Positions 7,800-64,000 of a stretch of DNA of 64,000 nucleotides are shown here, piece by piece. The translations under genes were made by a program, and so were the position numbers. The notes beneath the pieces were generated by a model. That model saw only the letters and a list, made by a program, of their open reading frames with translations, had not been told where the DNA came from and searched no databases. The stretch comes from a virus, in the UHGV virus genome UHGV-2025275. One strand, 5' to 3'. Numbering within the stretch: the stretch's first letter is position 1; each line of letters opens with the position of its first letter.

Positions 7800-9482
7800 T
7801 TAATCAACCTTCCAAACGTTGACAGCTTGCTTTGACATCCATTTCTGAAAATCATTGACAGTTTCTAAATTCCACTCTGCATATTCAGTGACTTTTGAAG
7901 CCAGAAAATATCCAGATTTTGTATATTCTTTTTTCTTATCTTCAAATGATGAGCGCTTTAAGTTATCTTTATCCATTAAAATCATGTTTCCAAGCCTATC
8001 TTTTACATCATTAATTCCTTCACCAAAAGAATCGCACCATTCTTTTTCGGGGTGATAAGGACAAATATGTTCTAATGTGGTTTTTTCATAATCACATTGA
8101 TTACCTAAATGCCCCTCAATCTCAGAAAGTAAAAACCGTATTTTTTTTGCCGTTTGCCTACTTGGCATCCTATGAAACTCAAAAGCATTAAAGAATGAAT
8201 TATCATCAGGATACAAGCGTTTAAATTCTTCACTATTTTTTACATGACTAGCTCTTAAAAACTCTCGATTATAAACTTTGTTAGCAATTTGATTGTAAAT
8301 ATTCTCTTGCTCGCTGGGCGATAAGTGGCAAATAACGTTATAACGAATAGATAATACGTATAAATATCTTACGAGTTTAACAAACTCTTCAGGAGAAAAG
8401 TTACCGAAGGCAGCAAGGAATATCGTAAGTGGTTGCTTGATATTGAATAACCTTATTCCATTAAGATAATGCAAAACATTTCTGTATTTCTCATCTTGAT
8501 CTCCCCACCATGCATCATTAGGGTTAATCAATGATGCATAGATAGGTGAGTAGTCAATTAATGATTTTAAATACTGATACGCTTCTTCCGGTTTCGTTAA
8601 TATCTTTCTCATAGAGGAAAACAGGTTGTTCTTAGTGACCATTTTTCTCTGCGAGTTATAGTGATATCTAATGTAATCAGAAACATTGCTTTCGCCAAGT
8701 TGGACGATCATTTCTGACCATTGCTCGTCCAAATCATTGAGTTCATCTTCTCCGATTTGATCATCTTTTGTCACAATTGAGAATAAATAGTTCTTAAGTA
8801 GATCTGGGGTGGAAAGTTGAACACCTCTCGCATTCAAAGTTTCAAAAACTTTATAAGCATTAAGATCATCTTGCACTATTATCTTTGTGAAAACCATGCT
8901 CGAAGAAAAATCTGCAATGAACTGAGCAATATCAGCACCTGTTCTACCAAAATCTTTCTTAGTAAAAAAATCAAAACATTTTCTTATCAATTTATTAGTC
9001 GATGTTATACCTCGAGGATTTTGAGTCTCTAAATGCGATGACATTCTTTGAAAATAACTTTTATTGTTTCTATTTAGTTCTAATTTATTAATCACTTTGA
9101 GCGTAACGAAGTTCTTACTTCCTACAAAGTTTTGAGTTATACCATTGAGTCGCTCAGTGTTTCCCTCTACATCCTCTCCATTATCAATTAAGGTTTTGAT
9201 AGCTTTCATTGCAGCCAGAACTATAATCGATAACGTAACTAAACGTTGTTGCCCATCGATAATTTCATGTTGATACTGTTCTTTTTGCTGAAGGACAATG
9301 TAGCCCATATAATGGAACCCTTCATCATCAAGTGCATTTATATCCCCCCACAAGTCCTCCCATTGCCCCACATCCCATGCGTAGTCTCGCTGGAACCTGG
9401 GTACAATATATTTGTTTGGACCACCAATTAATTCATTAAAATTCTCATTTTTTGGTTCCATCAACATAAATTGCTTTGCCAT
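7800..9482 (-). CDS. DUF262 (ParB-like NTPase/nuclease) + C-terminal DUF1524 (His-Me finger) protein, GmrSD-like type IV restriction-like enzyme
   Basis: PRFQRDYAW … IDGQQRL (DGQQR motif of DUF262); C-terminal LEHICP…H region; gene markedly AT-rich vs neighbours. Confidence 0.65.
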   Translation of the reverse strand: MAKQFMLMEPKNENFNELIGGPNKYIVPRFQRDYAWDVGQWEDLWGDINALDDEGFHYMGYIVLQQKEQYQHEIIDGQQRLVTLSIIVLAAMKAIKTLIDNGEDVEGNTERLNGITQNFVGSKNFVTLKVINKLELNRNNKSYFQRMSSHLETQNPRGITSTNKLIRKCFDFFTKKDFGRTGADIAQFIADFSSSMVFTKIIVQDDLNAYKVFETLNARGVQLSTPDLLKNYLFSIVTKDDQIGEDELNDLDEQWSEMIVQLGESNVSDYIRYHYNSQRKMVTKNNLFSSMRKILTKPEEAYQYLKSLIDYSPIYASLINPNDAWWGDQDEKYRNVLHYLNGIRLFNIKQPLTIFLAAFGNFSPEEFVKLVRYLYVLSIRYNVICHLSPSEQENIYNQIANKVYNREFLRASHVKNSEEFKRLYPDDNSFFNAFEFHRMPSRQTAKKIRFLLSEIEGHLGNQCDYEKTTLEHICPYHPEKEWCDSFGEGINDVKDRLGNMILMDKDNLKRSSFEDKKKEYTKSGYFLASKVTEYAEWNLETVNDFQKWMSKQAVNVWKVD

Positions 9483-50955: not shown

Positions 50956-52347
50956 TTATGCTTCATGTTGCTTTTTGAGATCGCTTCTAGCATAGCTCCA
51001 CTCAATAATGTTGTCGGGTCGTTGCTGATCGAAAAGGATTCGGGATTCAATACCATTACCTAAAAAGCTGGTATGCCCATCTACGTAAGAAGCTATCCCT
51101 TGCGAACCAACATGAAGAATATTTTCTAATGGTTGTTTTGTTCTCGCCGTATTGCTAAGGAGAAATAAACCTGGGTACGCTTTGTTAGCACGGTGAAAAA
51201 AAAGTTCATTGTCAAAACACATGACGATGATTATTTGTCCCGACATGAGATCGGAGAGCATTTCAGTTGGCAGATGCAAACTCATAAATGGCCGAGACAA
51301 AGGGTCAAAGAATGAATCGTTTATATTCACAACAGGGCTTTTTATATCGAGGCCATCCATCCATCCATTGAAGGCAACAAAACCCATTTTAGAATCACGG
51401 TACATACCTAAGAACAAACATTCATCAATAGTATCAATTGCCCAATTTTTTCCTCCGCGAATAATCTCCCACATTTTAACTAAACGGTGGGTATAAAACT
51501 CAGATGGATGGTCTATCTCATCGATTTTAACTTTAGATTGATGAAGATTGTCAAAGCCCTCGCCAGTATTAATCGCCTCCAGCACATTCATACCACGAAC
51601 GATTTGCCTTTTTATGCGATTAAATTGCTTAACATCATTTTCAGGCATATTGCTAATGAAGTTTTCTTCAAAGTTCGGACACTCTGAGATAACAGAAAAT
51701 TCGGCAGCTTCATAAAGCTCATTATTCTTTTTGCCTGTTTTAACTTCCACGAGTTGAAAGCCATCCAGTGGATTAAAGGTGACTAAATCCCCCACATGAA
51801 CAAATGTACTCATGTCAGAGACAATCGCTACGGCGTGTTTGTCCTGATTGATAAGATCGGCTGCGACCATAGAATCAATTATGTTATCTTCTGATAGATT
51901 GTCATTGCCTGTATTAATAGGTAAACGCCGCAAACTCGAGTGATCTTCATCAAGTATGCTCCAAATTAGTGAGTCAATACAACGGCGAAGAATAAGAATT
52001 TCAATTTTTTTTAAATTTATTTCATCAATACACTTTTCTTTCTTTTTTTTATCCTTGTTTCGATGATGCTCTTTTTTTTCAACTTCCAATTTTTTTATAT
52101 CTCGCAACCGAAAAATAATCTCAAAAGATATAAGTTTCTGTGCGTCTTTCCAATTTTTGAGACAGATTTCATACTCTTCAAGAAAAATTTCATCATTGGA
52201 AGGTTGTTCTTGAATTGGGTCTTCACCCCTTATCATTTTGGCAAGTGAATGCAGTTGAAATACAAAGTGAGGTGATAAAATTGTCCAAAATTTTCTAAAC
52301 GGTTTGTATTTTTCAATAAAAGTTGATTCGTCAGTATAATTTATCAT
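50956..52347 (-). CDS. AT-rich hypothetical protein (463 aa) with central PD-(D/E)xK-like nuclease motif
   Basis: …VHVGDLVTFNPLDGFQLVEVKTGKK… (D…E-V-K); own TATAAT-like promoter in 89-nt gap; ~30% GC. Confidence 0.6.
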   Translation of the reverse strand: MINYTDESTFIEKYKPFRKFWTILSPHFVFQLHSLAKMIRGEDPIQEQPSNDEIFLEEYEICLKNWKDAQKLISFEIIFRLRDIKKLEVEKKEHHRNKDKKKKEKCIDEINLKKIEILILRRCIDSLIWSILDEDHSSLRRLPINTGNDNLSEDNIIDSMVAADLINQDKHAVAIVSDMSTFVHVGDLVTFNPLDGFQLVEVKTGKKNNELYEAAEFSVISECPNFEENFISNMPENDVKQFNRIKRQIVRGMNVLEAINTGEGFDNLHQSKVKIDEIDHPSEFYTHRLVKMWEIIRGGKNWAIDTIDECLFLGMYRDSKMGFVAFNGWMDGLDIKSPVVNINDSFFDPLSRPFMSLHLPTEMLSDLMSGQIIIVMCFDNELFFHRANKAYPGLFLLSNTARTKQPLENILHVGSQGIASYVDGHTSFLGNGIESRILFDQQRPDNIIEWSYARSDLKKQHEA

Positions 52348-52436: not shown

Positions 52437-53306
52437 TCAGATATCTTCATACTGCACGTAAGAAATATTTGAGTCTCTGACATCATAATCTTCTAAGCTG
52501 CCTGACTTTTCCTCACCTCTATATAAAGCAACTATCCATCGAGCATTTTCTTGGATGCTTTTATTTATTTCAGCGAAGTATTCACCGTCAACTTCGGCAA
52601 GCGAATGGCCTAAAACAATGACCTCATCCACATTTTTAAGCGACGAGAAAAAAACGCTCTCTTCTTTAATTATGTTTTCGCTGGGCTTGAATGTATTACC
52701 GAAGTATTCGTCTATGCTGTCGTATGCCTCTGCTATTCTTGTATCTTGATCCGGCCCTATATATGGATTTAGTGACTTTTCAACCCTAAAACTGTGACCT
52801 AGTATGAGATCGTCATCGTAAATACAATTGCCGTGAATATGCATGATTTGCGCGTCTGGAACGGCATAGATCTGCTGCAAGGTATTGGTATAATTAAATG
52901 AAAAATAGAGGCTTTCTCTTGATATGGGCGGGATGTATTGCTCAGAATTGCAAGCATCGGTTATGTTAATCCCTTTAACCCAATCAGCGAATTGCTCCTT
53001 CAAGCGAGCTGACAGCATCCGTGTGATTTTATCTACTTCATATTGGTAATCGTGATGATAGGCATCGCTCCAATCATCGGTATTGTACGAAGCCAAAAAC
53101 ATCTCACTGTTTTGAAGGATAAGCTCATAATCAATTGCGCCTAAAGCACTTTCTAACTCGTTCCATTCGTCTCCAGCAGGCAGGTATTCTTCTATCGCGT
53201 CATATAGTTCTTGGTCATGTTTTGCTACATACGACTTAAAGTGCTTGTATCCTGTTGGCAAGCCATGTCGAATATCAAATCCGTTTCCTATTATGTAAAG
53301 CCTCAT
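52437..53306 (-). CDS. AbiH-family (abortive-infection-like) protein
   Basis: N-terminal MRLYIIGNGFDIRHGLPTGY…F, later FNYTNT and HIHG motifs typical of Pfam AbiH; start at internal ATG with AAGGG SD (ORF extends to 53420). Confidence 0.6.
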   Translation of the reverse strand: MRLYIIGNGFDIRHGLPTGYKHFKSYVAKHDQELYDAIEEYLPAGDEWNELESALGAIDYELILQNSEMFLASYNTDDWSDAYHHDYQYEVDKITRMLSARLKEQFADWVKGINITDACNSEQYIPPISRESLYFSFNYTNTLQQIYAVPDAQIMHIHGNCIYDDDLILGHSFRVEKSLNPYIGPDQDTRIAEAYDSIDEYFGNTFKPSENIIKEESVFFSSLKNVDEVIVLGHSLAEVDGEYFAEINKSIQENARWIVALYRGEEKSGSLEDYDVRDSNISYVQYEDI

Positions 53307-53423
53307 CGTTTTTCCCTTAGTCGAATGGTAAAAAGATACTAACCGACTAAAGAAAAACATAAAACCAAAAGTCGCTATCAAATACAACCACGAATTTTCA
53401 ATCTGACTACCAACCTCCATAGA

Positions 53424-60973: not shown

Positions 60974-61699
60974 TCAACACAGTCGCCGTGCTTCTTCCAG
61001 TTCTTCCGGGTAATGGGCATAGATAACGCGCTCAGGCACCAGCTCCATCAACCAGACAGCAGAGAAGATGGTGCGGATACGCTTATCACGGGTTATGTGT
61101 TTCAAACGCTCCAGAACCCATTCAAAGTAACGTTCCTGAATTGGGTCATGCTGCATGTCTCCTAAGTGCTTAAAACTCACTACAGAGTCATCCAGACGCG
61201 TTCCCGCACGACTGGCGAGTTTGTTTTCGAAGATCTCAATCAGTTCTGGCTGCCAGAGGTGCTGAGGGCGAGGTAATTTGTCCCAGAGCCGGCGCGCAGC
61301 TGCAGAGAGAACGGTTGATATAAAATAGTCATAAGAGCAGCAATATCTATCTGCAAACTGGCGAGCTTTCCAAAGGGATGTTTTGTTCACCGCCGCGAGC
61401 TCTTGGTAAGGCAAGCGTTTCAGGCCAGTACTAAATGGCGCCGTCTCGAAATGCTCGCGGCCATGGGATAGCATGATCTGTGAGTATGAACGCTTATAGG
61501 CTTCTGTGAACAGGCAGGTTGCCATCAGCGGGTGCATGTCGCGATAGTCAAACCACTTTGTATCAAAGAGCTCAGCCTCCCCCTGGCATCGTGAAAGACC
61601 GATGTTTTCCGCAACCCACTTGTCCATGGCAGCTGTGTTCCACTCCATCATGAAGTCGTACTGGCCGTTGTTTATGGTGTCAAAAAAGATCTGGCTCAT
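60974..61699 (-). CDS. hypothetical protein (241 aa)
   Basis: motif-1 copy 10 nt upstream. Confidence 0.55.
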   Translation of the reverse strand: MSQIFFDTINNGQYDFMMEWNTAAMDKWVAENIGLSRCQGEAELFDTKWFDYRDMHPLMATCLFTEAYKRSYSQIMLSHGREHFETAPFSTGLKRLPYQELAAVNKTSLWKARQFADRYCCSYDYFISTVLSAAARRLWDKLPRPQHLWQPELIEIFENKLASRAGTRLDDSVVSFKHLGDMQHDPIQERYFEWVLERLKHITRDKRIRTIFSAVWLMELVPERVIYAHYPEELEEARRLC

Positions 61700-61708
61700 G
61701 CCCTCACC

Positions 61709-61731
61709 GATAGGTAACTACTTACTTATTG
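61709..61731. promoter_or_regulatory. motif-1 palindrome GATAGGTAACTACTTACTTATTG
   Basis: intergenic. Confidence 0.5.
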
Positions 61732-61871
61732 ATTGACAAATCATAGCGACTGGGAAGCTGTTTGGAAAGAGGAATTAGAAGGGTGTGCCCTGGTGTGTTC
61801 TTGTATCAAAGACCTGCTTCTGTATATTATTATACTTCCAGTATTAAAATTACTACAGAAGCAGGCAAATA

Positions 61872-63635
61872 TTAATCAATATCTATCTTTAACAATCTTT
61901 CAACTCTTATTTTATTCAATTGCGAAGTTCTTGCCACTCTTTTAATTGCAGCTATTGCTTTATCAGTTATTTGAGTCTGGCCAGGTATAGGATCAACGTG
62001 GTCGTCAAATTTAAGAAGGCCATGCCTAATCTTATCTAAAACATCTTCGTTACAGGTAACAATCCAGTTGTAATAATCATCTTCACTGTATGCATTTAAA
62101 GCATCAATATGTAATGAAGAGTAATTATTACTGCTCGATAACCGGCCAAGCAACTCATCTAAATCATATTCGGCCTTTCTTATTTGATTTAATTTATTAT
62201 TAATCAATTCATATAAGCCTTTATGCTCAATGGTGCTGTTCATCAATAAATTATATTCTTTATTAAGTGAACCTCTACTAATAAGATCATCAACATATTG
62301 AGTAATATAACTATCGCAGTTAACGCCTAACTCCTCTAGAATAATAAAAATCGAGGAAACCTTGCTAAGAGGTATTCTCGACCTATACTCCTCTATTGCT
62401 CCTTTCAATGCATCAACAAAATCATCTTGGTTTGTATTGAAAGAATCTCTAAAAACACTCCATATTTCATCTAACTTTCTATTTATCGCTATATCTTCAT
62501 AATCTTTATTTTTAGCCTTCACCGCACTTTCAAAACTGAAGTTGGAAGGCAAATATCCATGCTTAAAGTAATAATCAATCCCGTAATCAAATAAATTATC
62601 AGAATTTGTAAATGACATATCTAACTGCTCTATGAATTTTTCAGTGGCTGACATTTCGTCATCATTAGTATGATAACTATCAGCCATTGCTCTGGGTTGT
62701 ATTTTTTTGAAAAATTCATCATAGGGCAACTCATCAGCCCATGAGTAAAATACATATGCAAAAAGAACAACTCTGAAAGTAAAATCTTTCCGCACTTCCC
62801 TGCACGCTGTTGTGAATTCAGACTCATATGCGTAAAGAGTCTTTTTTATTTTATTCAATATTCTAATATTTTTTAAATTTAAAGCATCTGCCGCACTTTT
62901 TATAAATTCAAAATTCGGATCGTTATGTGGAAATATTTTTCTGACATTATCAATGACGTCAGGTTTATACATAATGTCACGATCGACAATTTTTTCTCGA
63001 TATTCTATAAATTGTCTTTCTTCATCATTCTTAGTTAAGTTATTTTCATTGTAAATCAATATTATCTTACATGCTTTTGATCTTGCAAGGTCATCAACTA
63101 ACCCCATGAAGTCTTTTATCTCTAAAGAGCTACCTTTTCTCTCAAGATCGTCAAAACAAATTAAATATTTACTTACATAATTATAACCATCAAAAATTGT
63201 AAATTCGGAGGATTTAAGGCCAAACCCGCTTATCCCTATGCTAAAGTTATTAAAGATCGTTTTACTTACTTTGTTATACCTTACGCACTTATATACTCCC
63301 GAGAAAAACCTCTCCATCATTTGTTGTTTTTTCTCTAGTAAATCCTCTCTATAAAGTTTTTGATTAAGCGGTATAGTGGAAGGGAATAGTTTTTTCTTAA
63401 TTTCTTCAATAGAATTAAGACCAAATAGAGAAACATATGAATATGCAATCTGATCAATTTCTCTTTTATTTCTTTTACCTTCGTAGTAACGGTTCCAAAA
63501 ATGTGTTTTCCCTACTCCCCATTCACCTTTAATTACTGCAACCCTGTCATCAGAAGCCAAAAATTCATCTAAAATTTTTGTTATGGACATAATTAATGCT
63601 CCTAAGAAAAAGGCGCCTAACGCGCCTTCAATCAA
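61872..63635 (-). CDS. KAP-family P-loop NTPase (587 aa), AT-rich
   Basis: Walker A KGEWGVGKTHFW (GxWGxGKT hallmark of KAP NTPases); ~28% GC vs ~50% backbone. Confidence 0.6.
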   Translation of the reverse strand: MIEGALGAFFLGALIMSITKILDEFLASDDRVAVIKGEWGVGKTHFWNRYYEGKRNKREIDQIAYSYVSLFGLNSIEEIKKKLFPSTIPLNQKLYREDLLEKKQQMMERFFSGVYKCVRYNKVSKTIFNNFSIGISGFGLKSSEFTIFDGYNYVSKYLICFDDLERKGSSLEIKDFMGLVDDLARSKACKIILIYNENNLTKNDEERQFIEYREKIVDRDIMYKPDVIDNVRKIFPHNDPNFEFIKSAADALNLKNIRILNKIKKTLYAYESEFTTACREVRKDFTFRVVLFAYVFYSWADELPYDEFFKKIQPRAMADSYHTNDDEMSATEKFIEQLDMSFTNSDNLFDYGIDYYFKHGYLPSNFSFESAVKAKNKDYEDIAINRKLDEIWSVFRDSFNTNQDDFVDALKGAIEEYRSRIPLSKVSSIFIILEELGVNCDSYITQYVDDLISRGSLNKEYNLLMNSTIEHKGLYELINNKLNQIRKAEYDLDELLGRLSSSNNYSSLHIDALNAYSEDDYYNWIVTCNEDVLDKIRHGLLKFDDHVDPIPGQTQITDKAIAAIKRVARTSQLNKIRVERLLKIDID

Positions 63636-63994
63636 CTCTTTTTCATCAGCTCACGCTTTATTTCGTCAGTACGCATCGTCACATCAGCAGCGGTGATCGC
63701 CTCGTTCATCTTTACGATGTCCTCAATTTCCTGCGGGGACTTCTCTGCCAGATGGAAAATGGCTGCTCGTATCACATCAGAACGGGTGAACTTCTCGAAG
63801 CGAGGGATGAACTTCATCATCTCCAGTAATTCGAAATACTCGTCTTCAAGCGACATCGTGCGGCTTTTGATTTTCTCTTTACCACGTGTTGGACGGCCTT
63901 GTGGACGGACAGGCTGGCGCATCGGTGTGCTGCTTTTAGGCGCAGCAGCTTCCGCAGCCGGACGTTTTGCCAGATCACCCATTTTCATGGACAT
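63632..63994 (-). CDS. hypothetical basic/acidic protein (120 aa), possible DNA-binding
   Basis: ATG ORF whose stop overlaps KAP start. Confidence 0.45.
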   Translation of the reverse strand: MSMKMGDLAKRPAAEAAAPKSSTPMRQPVRPQGRPTRGKEKIKSRTMSLEDEYFELLEMMKFIPRFEKFTRSDVIRAAIFHLAEKSPQEIEDIVKMNEAITAADVTMRTDEIKRELMKKS

Positions 63995-64000
63995 TATTCA

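Follow-up and report, generated by a model that had tools for sequence, protein, structure and literature searches.

What is an AT-rich gene doing between the partition and the replication genes of a Klebsiella phage-plasmid? The question is raised by the end of a 64,000-nt stretch of the virus genome UHGV-2025275 (hereafter the window, at its full length), which is DNA of a Klebsiella SSU5-like phage-plasmid and carries, on the minus strand at 61872..63590, a gene for a 572-aa P-loop NTPase of the KAP family. An initial annotation, made from the letters of the sequence, had drawn attention to the gene and guessed at a superinfection-exclusion or anti-phage role; its observation held in part, and so did its interpretation. 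The answer that we favor is that the protein is probably a single-gene anti-phage, or more broadly anti-invader, immunity protein that occupies a cargo hotspot of the phage-plasmid, and we infer that the gene is carried to protect both the host and the phage-plasmid itself. What leads to this answer is the anatomy of the gene and of its product, the family membership, the structure of the slot, the diversity of the alleles and the contexts in which homologues occur; as for the mechanism, the KAP proteins that have been tested elsewhere (PifA, the enterococcal KAP proteins, and Reve) offer an analogy.

Where does the gene begin? The minus-strand open reading frame (ORF) has its stop end at 61872, and its longest version reaches a TTG at 63635, which yields 587 aa and overlaps the TGA of a 120-aa ORF upstream (TTGA). 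The initial annotation had chosen this version and regarded the two genes as translationally coupled. The ATG at 63590 is favored instead: an AGGAG (63599-63603) lies 8 nt upstream of it, the PGAP annotation of the gene in near-identical plasmids (e.g., NZ_CP030306.1) gives 572 aa from this ATG, and in an alignment of 58 homologues the conservation of the family begins at its Met. Moreover, the spacer between the stop of the 120-aa gene and this ATG measures 41, 42, 43, 48, or 51 nt depending on the allele, so that the overlapping TTG is not kept in frame, and the spacer contains a terminator-like hairpin. For all of these reasons, the gene is best taken as 61872-63590, 572 aa, and uncoupled.

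The composition of the gene is a second peculiarity. The coding sequence has a GC content of 31.3%, and 26.7% at third codon positions, against 50-52% and 55-62%, respectively, in the flanking genes and 49% in the window; it is the lowest-GC 1719-bp stretch of the whole 64 kb. The figures first given, ∼28% in a ∼50% backbone, were slightly low for the gene, and the AT-rich, foreign composition that they were meant to convey is borne out.

Profile and motifs both place the protein in the KAP family, as had been proposed. The Pfam profile KAP_NTPase (PF07693) matches it in two stretches at 32.3 bits (E 8.3e-8; gathering cutoff 20) and matches the E. coli allele at 24.8 bits over model positions 12-278 of 293, and most homologues carry a precomputed match to the same profile. 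The motifs of the family are a Walker A of the form GxxGxGK[ST] and a Walker B of hhhhDD followed by L-[DE]-R, and the protein has both: the string GEWGVGKTHF, already pointed out in the initial annotation, contains the Walker A GEWGVGKT (G22-T29, 63504-63527, minus strand), while the Walker B reads LICFDDLER (residues 143-151, 63138-63164, minus strand). Among the 58 homologues G22, W24, G25, G27, K28, T29, D147, E150, N181, E199, D203, N241, and R243 are invariant, and D148 and R151 are at least 90% conserved. The protein also matches the phage family phrog_4740 (E 2e-161); no NCBIfam model matches it, and the family profile, run against PDB sequences, returned nothing meaningful (best E 0.6).

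The AlphaFold2 model, built with the 58-homologue alignment, has a pLDDT of 85 for the whole protein and 91 for its C-terminal part, with a pTM of 0.71. In this prediction, an N-terminal NTPase module with an Orc/Cdc6/STAND-like core (a P-loop core plus a helical lid, approximately residues 1-255, 62826..63590, minus strand) is followed by an all-helical alpha-solenoid (residues 256-572, 61875..62825, minus strand) that might act as a sensor. No winged-helix or other DNA-binding domain was seen in the protein, the C-terminal part being the alpha-solenoid. Between Walker A and Walker B, residues 100-133 form a 34-residue insert that is modeled with low confidence and is disordered. The protein has no transmembrane (TM) helix, its best 19-residue Kyte-Doolittle window scoring 1.15. 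Helices of this kind accompanying the NTPase domain are reported to be typical of many KAP members (Aravind et al. 2004). The 34-residue insert might correspond to the place where classical KAP proteins carry TM hairpins; a published account instead puts the TM helices of KAP proteins outside the P-loop domain. PifA is a KAP member devoid of them, so TM helices are no strict requirement.

How widespread is this architecture? When 1.84 billion cluster representatives were searched with a profile, 8464 relatives came up, of which 2069 had E ≤1e-30; each of the best 150 has a length of 530-600 aa and matches end to end, which speaks for one coherent architecture and not for a KAP domain combined with a variable effector.

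The surrounding DNA is 78-95% identical to Salmonella phage SSU5 and to Klebsiella and E. coli phage-plasmids, and PLSDB holds 706-726 related plasmids, mostly ∼105-115 kb in size and mostly non-mobilizable, typed as IncFIB wherever this was inspected, from Klebsiella, Escherichia, Enterobacter, Salmonella, and other hosts. Every relative inspected has the same gene order, namely ParA, a ∼118-aa gene, a variable segment, a 241-aa gene, a DnaB-like helicase, and a primase. The KAP gene fills the variable segment, between the par operon and the 241aa-dnaB-primase genes, and a conserved hairpin and a promoter-like site intervene before the latter; its assignment to a helicase-primase operon, made in the initial annotation, was not borne out. 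The limits of the exchangeable segment (61768..63630, no strand assigned) show in two comparisons: in blastn, homology to the sister phage-plasmid pJN2-26 ends at 61767 and restarts at 63631, and in a sliding comparison with other KAP alleles the identity collapses at ∼63650 and recovers at ∼61860-61830. Homologous recombination in the conserved flanks explains these borders.

The 120-aa gene (63632..63994, minus strand; phrog_5111, E 1e-76) follows a ParA gene that lies beyond the end of the window. Its product shows a weak match to the ribbon-helix-helix-type family aCcr1 (residues 55-80, E 2e-4, below cutoff) and is read as a putative ParG-like ribbon-helix-helix partition adaptor. A gene of ∼118 or 120 aa stands directly after ParA in SSU5, pJN2-26, Cyrano, and all plasmids inspected, regardless of the cargo, and the protein is 97-100% identical between plasmids whose KAP alleles are ∼52% identical. 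Being a backbone gene that is present whatever the cargo, it is no partner of the KAP gene, and a functional or translational link between the two is not supported.

What else can fill this slot? The KAP gene is present in ∼100 of the ∼726 related PLSDB plasmids, diverged alleles included, and the type found in the window accounts for 63 records, all from Klebsiella. The 572-aa ORF is intact in ∼60 plasmids, as is that of every diverged allele inspected. In CP109700.1, CP133154.1, and NZ_OX337254.1 the window-type gene is split into several annotated pieces or shows small changes of length, which suggests occasional pseudogenization. The slot of SSU5 and pJN2-26 holds two small genes and a DUF2971 gene, and that of Cyrano a DUF2971 gene alone. 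This DUF2971 cargo corresponds to the PADLOC candidate PDC-S31 (E 2e-33 and 3e-41); the same domain is that of Aristaios, a lactococcal protein whose defence activity has been validated (PMC11381338) and whose fold resembles the DarT ADP-ribosyltransferase (PMC11381338, PMC12522546). A spread sample of the 726 plasmids, with four fetched examples, added further types: the two small genes alone, a pair of 768 and 411 bp, a reversed 255-aa GIY-YIG gene matching PD-T4-3 at E 1.3e-23 (CP088502.1, locus L027, 1309-2076, plus strand), and a reversed 352-aa gene with no match in Pfam or PADLOC (NZ_CP070892.1, locus L026, 1320-2378, plus strand), which by its position is a candidate for a new defence gene.

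Alternative, unrelated cargo at one fixed position means that the slot is a hotspot, with much of its cargo of the defence type. This corresponds to hotspot cargo in the sense of Rousset 2022, that is, a fixed backbone position with alternative genes that include known defences. The slot shares with the P2 gpA-gpQ and P4 hotspots a fixed position, a mostly single-gene and AT-rich defence cargo, and exchange via recombination in conserved flanks; what sets it apart is its carrier, an SSU5-like phage-plasmid, and its situation, with the par operon on one side, the rep operon on the other, and a conserved stem-loop to close it. The systems that a 2025 survey reports for SSU5-like elements include AbiH, HEC-06, and PD-T4-3, but the survey mentions neither the slot, as a hotspot or otherwise, nor the KAP gene; in the literature searched we found no description of the par/rep cargo slot.

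The alleles of the gene tell a story of their own. Relative to the window protein, they are 94%, 54%, and 52% identical in Klebsiella, 43% in Salmonella/Citrobacter, 40% in Rahnella, and 39% in E. coli/Shigella. Among Klebsiella plasmids with 97-100% identity in ParA, in the ∼118-aa and 241-aa proteins, and in the helicase, the KAP proteins are only 48-54% identical. In a neighbor-joining tree the phage-plasmid alleles form a single deep clade, and all of them have a GC content of 30-32%; the gene is therefore no recent arrival, contrary to the idea of a recent foreign acquisition. The AT shift relative to the flanks recurs at all 11 family loci compared (11/11). Within the window-type allele, the ratio of nonsynonymous to synonymous substitution rates (dN/dS, pairwise NG86) is 0.23-0.45, against 0.01-0.12 for backbone genes. 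The allele of NZ_CP152333.1 (L018), compared with 61872-63590 of the window, has 26 nonsynonymous and 19 synonymous differences in the N-terminal half and one of each in the C-terminal half, and differences so nearly confined to one half indicate intragenic recombination and a mosaic gene. To judge by these comparisons, the KAP gene is a long-standing, fast-evolving, and recombining accessory gene of the SSU5-like lineage, and its allele evolution appears typical of conflict genes.

Distant homologues (full-length, 25-31% identity) occur in several contexts. Three of them stand between the P2 replication gene A and the portal gene Q, one in a metagenomic prophage and two in E. coli chromosomes; these are full-length at 26-28% identity (E 1e-49 to 6e-59), and the E. 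coli P2-like prophage loci concerned are NZ_OZ547033.1 (L033, 4935-8611) and NZ_CP027447.1 (L034, 6630-8282). The gpA-gpQ interval is an experimentally shown defence hotspot (Rousset 2022, PMC9122126). Another homologue belongs to a chromosomal island with TIR, Kiwa KwaA/KwaB, PIN, and NYN genes, and others are found near a TIR/TPR-S/S8-peptidase gene, beside a Phd-type antitoxin pair, inside the transfer operon of an integrative and conjugative element (ICE), and beside small tyrosine recombinases in islets. No neighbor is common to the P2-hotspot, ICE, and island contexts, so the gene would work alone or with host factors. Distant DNA matches occur in ∼130 of 5426 complete E. coli genomes, all of them chromosomal. 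The anti-phage or exclusion role guessed in the initial annotation thus gains support, by association only, from a defence-library match (PDC-S49, E 3.4e-24, discussed below), from DUF2971/PDC-S31 and PD-T4-3 in the same slot, and from homologues in the P2 hotspot and in the Kiwa/TIR island.

A few details of these loci deserve a record. One E. coli homologue in the P2 hotspot adjoins a gene annotated as "LA2681 family HEPN domain-containing protein". In the Pseudomonas/Neopusillimonas islets the homologue lies 0.4-1.8 kb downstream of a short (206-208 aa) gene of the Phage_integrase family (L006 7580-8200, L009 8999-9625, and L010 697-1323), and integrase gene and homologue may constitute a small mobile unit. 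In Pseudomonas, a 97-113 aa gene precedes the homologue, by ∼70 nt in L007 and L008 and by ∼0.9 kb in L006.

Two hairpins frame the cargo. On the upstream side, the stretch from the stop codon of the 120-aa gene to the ribosome-binding site of the KAP gene contains a terminator-like hairpin (63604..63629, minus strand) of the form GAAGGCGC-GUUAG-GCGCCUUU followed by a U tract; in the DNA, the order after the upstream stop is GAAGGCGC-GTTAG-GCGCCTTT, a T tract, AGGAG, 8 nt, and the ATG at 63590. RNA folding of the spacer gives an 8-bp GC-rich stem and then UUUUUCUU, at -17.3 kcal/mol (z -2.3). A GC-rich hairpin with a T run follows the ∼118-aa gene in every KAP allele and in Cyrano, each time with a different sequence. 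The matches from Rfam were all sub-threshold; one of them, to sroD, a terminator-ended small RNA, covers 63604-63686 on the minus strand (28.7 bits, cutoff 50, E 0.007) and spans the 3′ end of the 120-aa gene and the hairpin, which could reflect a small RNA derived from the 3′ untranslated region or the mere shape of a terminator.

On the downstream side, the slot is closed by a long stem-loop (61813..61865, minus strand; arms 61813-61824 and 61854-61865) with a perfect stem of 12-13 bp, an AT-rich loop of 27-30 nt, and a T-rich tail. Its folding energy is -24.3 kcal/mol (z -4.3), and none of 200 shuffled sequences did as well. The initial annotation had listed a long hairpin downstream of the KAP gene: the hairpin exists, and it is not a feature of that gene, as it is conserved in relatives that lack it. 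SSU5, pJN2-26, Cyrano, CMS-2020a, and all KAP alleles have it, relatives with other cargo included, with a conserved stem and a variable loop; the loci that show it are L001-L005 and L012-L019, and it forms the recombination border of the slot on the downstream side. One compensatory change was seen, from C-G to U-A in pJN2-26. Elsewhere in the stem, across ten distinct versions, departures from Watson-Crick pairing almost always read G-U in the gene-sense strand and A-C in the opposite one; pJN2-26 is an exception with a C/U mismatch, as are mismatches close to the loop, of which one (L018) gives G-U in the opposite strand. In all ten versions the better fold is that of the sense strand. This strand-specific G-U pattern indicates a structure at the RNA level, on transcripts in the sense of the cargo. 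The stem-loop is thus likely to be an RNA terminator or 3′-end stabilizer of the cargo transcripts that insulates the replication genes. A simple terminator scan of 61500-64000 found no site, even though RNA folding shows both hairpins, which are for this reason called terminator-like only.

The stem-loop was also considered as an attC-like or other site for site-specific recombination, a role set aside because there is no recombinase in or next to the slot, no attC-type core sites were seen, and the G-U pattern is strand-specific. Beyond it, at 61740..61768 on the minus strand, the conserved backbone offers a promoter-like TTTCCA-17-TATGAT upstream of the 241aa-dnaB-primase genes, and all six relatives in the alignment conserve the blocks CGCTAT[G/C]AT and TTCCA. 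The sequence TTGTATCAAAGA[G/C]CT forms a direct repeat of 15 nt, at 61558-61572 and at 61801-61815; one copy lies inside the 241-aa gene and the other abuts the stem-loop, and the repeat may be due to chance.

How does the protein compare with the KAP and immune NTPases already described? Its best match in the defence library of PADLOC is PDC-S49, with three models (E 3.4e-24, 1.2e-17, and 3.8e-12), and the E. coli allele matches the same three. PDC-S49 is a single-gene candidate whose models have 619-629 positions, a length similar to that of the window protein; the difference is that the C-terminal solenoid of the present family is not clearly that of PDC-S49. The third model aligns weakly with residues 2-422. 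On these profile matches, the relation is well supported only over the NTPase module.

PifA of the F plasmid is the founding prokaryotic KAP NTPase and excludes phage T7; it is reported to be triggered by T7 gp1.2 and gp10, with a membrane leak as the outcome. Like the window protein, it is a plasmid-borne single protein with a KAP Walker A, a Walker B of the type hhhhDDL[DE]R, and a large non-enzymatic region after the NTPase, without TM helices. It differs in having 741 aa, against 572, and in that pifA lies downstream of the repressor gene pifC, no such regulator being found upstream of the window gene. In hhalign the two proteins share ∼68 columns around Walker B (probability 48%, E 1.8e-4), the Walker B of the window protein aligning with VVMDDLDR of PifA. 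The PADLOC models of PifA, QatA, and Tmn do not match the window protein at E <0.1, while PifA itself matches its own model at E 2.9e-290, and QatA as well. Membership in the PifA family was set aside on the lack of a profile match and on an hhalign alignment limited to 68 columns, and identity with Tmn/YobI-type proteins or QatA on the lack of TM helices, of which Tmn has two inserted in its P-loop domain, and of Tmn or QatA matches at the same threshold.

The STAND/Avs (NLR-like) proteins, whose architecture is a tripartite one of effector, NTPase, and sensor, resemble the window protein in combining an NTPase core with a C-terminal helical-repeat sensor, and some members of the family give faint matches to NB-ARC (PF00931). 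Nonetheless, nSTAND3 appears only below threshold and in one allele, and an identity of this type was ruled out by motifs that are those of KAP and not of STAND, and by the lack of an N-terminal or other effector domain. Also comparable are the enterococcal KAP proteins (EF_KAP and others), whose C-terminal regions are non-enzymatic and which protect Enterococcus in a Walker B-dependent and non-abortive manner; the single-gene, protective KAP P-loop defence proteins from gut metagenomes (PMC12632615 for both); and "Reve", a single KAP gene from a P4 satellite hotspot that protects E. coli (PMC13586616). EF_KAP and Reve share with the window gene the character of single-gene KAP NTPases on mobile elements whose C-terminal regions are without known domains, and EF_KAP differs by two N-terminal TM helices, where the window protein has none. 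These two were compared by description, and the likeness concerns the KAP domain.

How might such a protein work? The mechanism that we propose is conditional at each step. The KAP gene would be expressed constitutively at a low level, by read-through from the autoregulated par promoter across a leaky upstream hairpin. The C-terminal alpha-solenoid would then bind a protein or structure of the invader, and this binding would switch the Orc/Cdc6/STAND-like NTPase (K28, D147/D148, N181, R243) into an NTP-dependent oligomer. The oligomer could block the infection by sequestering its target, by burning NTP, or by recruiting a host factor, an output that would do without a fused toxic domain.

Several points weigh against a defence role and against this mechanism. 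The literature searched yielded no experiment on the KAP-solenoid family of the window. PDC-S49 is a candidate class, unnamed in that literature, and its best model covers only residues 3-222 of the protein, against model positions 9-210 of 624. No enzymatic or pore-forming effector domain is recognizable in the protein (no nuclease, protease, TIR, SIR2, or pore), so that the output step proposed above is a guess. The top structural neighbors of the protein are replication initiators and loaders, and the gene adjoins replication genes. The dN/dS ratio is below 1 in every pairwise comparison, so the alleles speak for relaxed or heterogeneous constraint and positive selection is not shown. The interval from the upstream hairpin to the start of the KAP gene showed no promoter-like site, and read-through from the par promoter is accordingly the simplest reading of its expression. 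Lastly, the SSU5-like Klebsiella plasmid p2 (CP085480) lowers phage plating 10-100 fold by a determinant that is unmapped (PMC8969562). This phenotype is not creditable to the KAP gene and was dropped as evidence: p2 is not among the listed carriers, and pKp1 (CP086286), listed in the same paper as similar to p2, has a DUF2971 module in the slot.

Other explanations of the locus have to be weighed against an immunity gene. One is that the protein is a determinant of competition or kin discrimination, directed at other phage-plasmids or plasmids (superinfection exclusion, or an incompatibility-like effect) and not at lytic phages, with the alleles marking who excludes whom. At least three Klebsiella alleles of 48-54% identity between flanking proteins of 97-100% identity would fit such a function, as would homologues that ride on ICEs, P2 prophages, and integrase islets; so would the position between par and rep functions, which govern the coexistence of related replicons. 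Curing plasmid p2 also raised transformation efficiency (PMC8969562), an effect that the authors ascribed, however, to a restriction-modification system, and the similar pKp1 has DUF2971 in its slot. Against this idea, the tested members of the slot families (PD-T4-3 and the DUF2971 protein Aristaios) act on lytic phages, and some homologues sit in defence islands of chromosomes, with no plasmid around them; on balance, we consider it unlikely. The gene could also be a functionless passenger, that is, AT-rich foreign DNA kept silent (for example, bound by H-NS) and drifting toward loss: its 31% GC in an element of 49%, the want of a promoter-like site of its own, the broken copies in a few plasmids, and a dN/dS 5-10 times that of the backbone would all agree with this. 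However, the ORF is whole in ∼60 plasmids as well as in each diverged allele inspected, ratios of 0.23-0.45 still denote purifying selection, the motif residues are invariant in 58 homologues, the full-length architecture is kept across thousands of clusters, and AT-richness relative to the flanks is family-wide (11/11 loci), all of which makes mere decay very unlikely.

Two further explanations take their cue from the neighbors. Lying on the same strand and directly upstream of the 241aa-dnaB-primase genes, the KAP gene could encode an accessory replication or partition factor, for instance an Orc1/Cdc6- or TnsC-like loader that acts with the adjacent DnaB helicase and primase. Such a function would be hard to reconcile with the absence of the gene from ∼85% of the related plasmids, which have unrelated genes (DUF2971, GIY-YIG, and others) in its stead, with the conserved terminator-like stem-loop and the promoter-like site that part it from the replication genes, with an alpha-solenoid in place of any winged-helix or other DNA-binding domain, with alleles 40-54% identical where the helicase is 92-100% identical, and with homologues that stand alone in non-replicon contexts; the explanation is extremely unlikely. 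On the upstream side, the 120-aa protein could be a translationally coupled partner, regulator, or antitoxin of the NTPase in a two-gene system, as the overlap of TTG and TGA in the longest ORF and the 97-113 aa gene ∼70 nt upstream of some Pseudomonas homologues might hint. We can give this hardly any credence: the 120-aa gene follows ParA in the backbone with every kind of cargo, its product is near-constant where KAP alleles differ by ∼48%, the spacer of 41-51 nt has its own terminator-like hairpin, AGGAG, and ATG, the last backed by PGAP and by the conservation of the family, and no neighbor is conserved next to the homologues of the P2 hotspots, the ICEs, and the islands.

A bolder form of the immunity reading can be put forward as quite improbable in its entirety. 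The KAP-solenoid protein would be an immune receptor without an effector, and the slot a site that SSU5-like phage-plasmids dedicate to an "immunity cassette" insulated by terminators. The autoregulated par operon would supply a leaky expression, and a disturbance of the partition complex, such as the titration of ParG by an incoming related replicon or phage, would derepress the receptor; the NTP-driven oligomer would then act directly on replication or packaging proteins of the invader and not via a toxic domain. The deep series of alleles, 40-54% identical in near-identical backbones, would represent a specificity polymorphism under frequency-dependent selection.

Is the KAP gene the only such cargo of this element? 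The window has two other low-GC islands, both with genes on the minus strand. One carries a GmrSD-type (DUF262/DUF1524) type IV restriction enzyme of 560 aa (7800-9482; PADLOC HEC-06, E 2e-215; Pfam GmrSD_N and GmrSD_C). The other carries an AbiH protein (52437-53420; Pfam AbiH, E 2e-69) and, directly downstream, a 463-aa gene (50956-52347) with no Pfam or PADLOC match, which could be a partner of AbiH or another defence gene. With GmrSD/HEC-06 and AbiH in these two islands, all the AT-rich islands of the element look like defence cargo, and their content counts, as an association, toward a defence role of the KAP gene.

What, then, would the finding mean? That KAP NTPases can be defence genes, and that temperate elements have hotspots, is already known; the function of the ∼560-aa soluble KAP-solenoid family, its extreme allelic diversity in near-isogenic phage-plasmids, and the par/rep slot closed by a stem-loop are undescribed in the literature searched. 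Phage-plasmids of the SSU5 type are frequent among clinical Klebsiella, E. coli, Shigella sonnei, and Salmonella Typhi, and PLSDB alone has ∼726 records of them; should the KAP gene block phages, it would matter for phage therapy and for the question of which lineages retain the elements. The slot and its closing stem-loop give a handle for mining defence genes from hundreds of sequenced phage-plasmids, and the natural series of alleles in near-isogenic backbones is a ready-made panel to study specificity. As for the family, it is large, has a single architecture, and turns up repeatedly in P2 gpA-gpQ, a defence hotspot of the best-validated kind; if the immunity reading is true, it would be a clear example of a KAP NTPase that is soluble, has a helical sensor, and lacks a recognizable effector, and would help to show how KAP-type immunity works.

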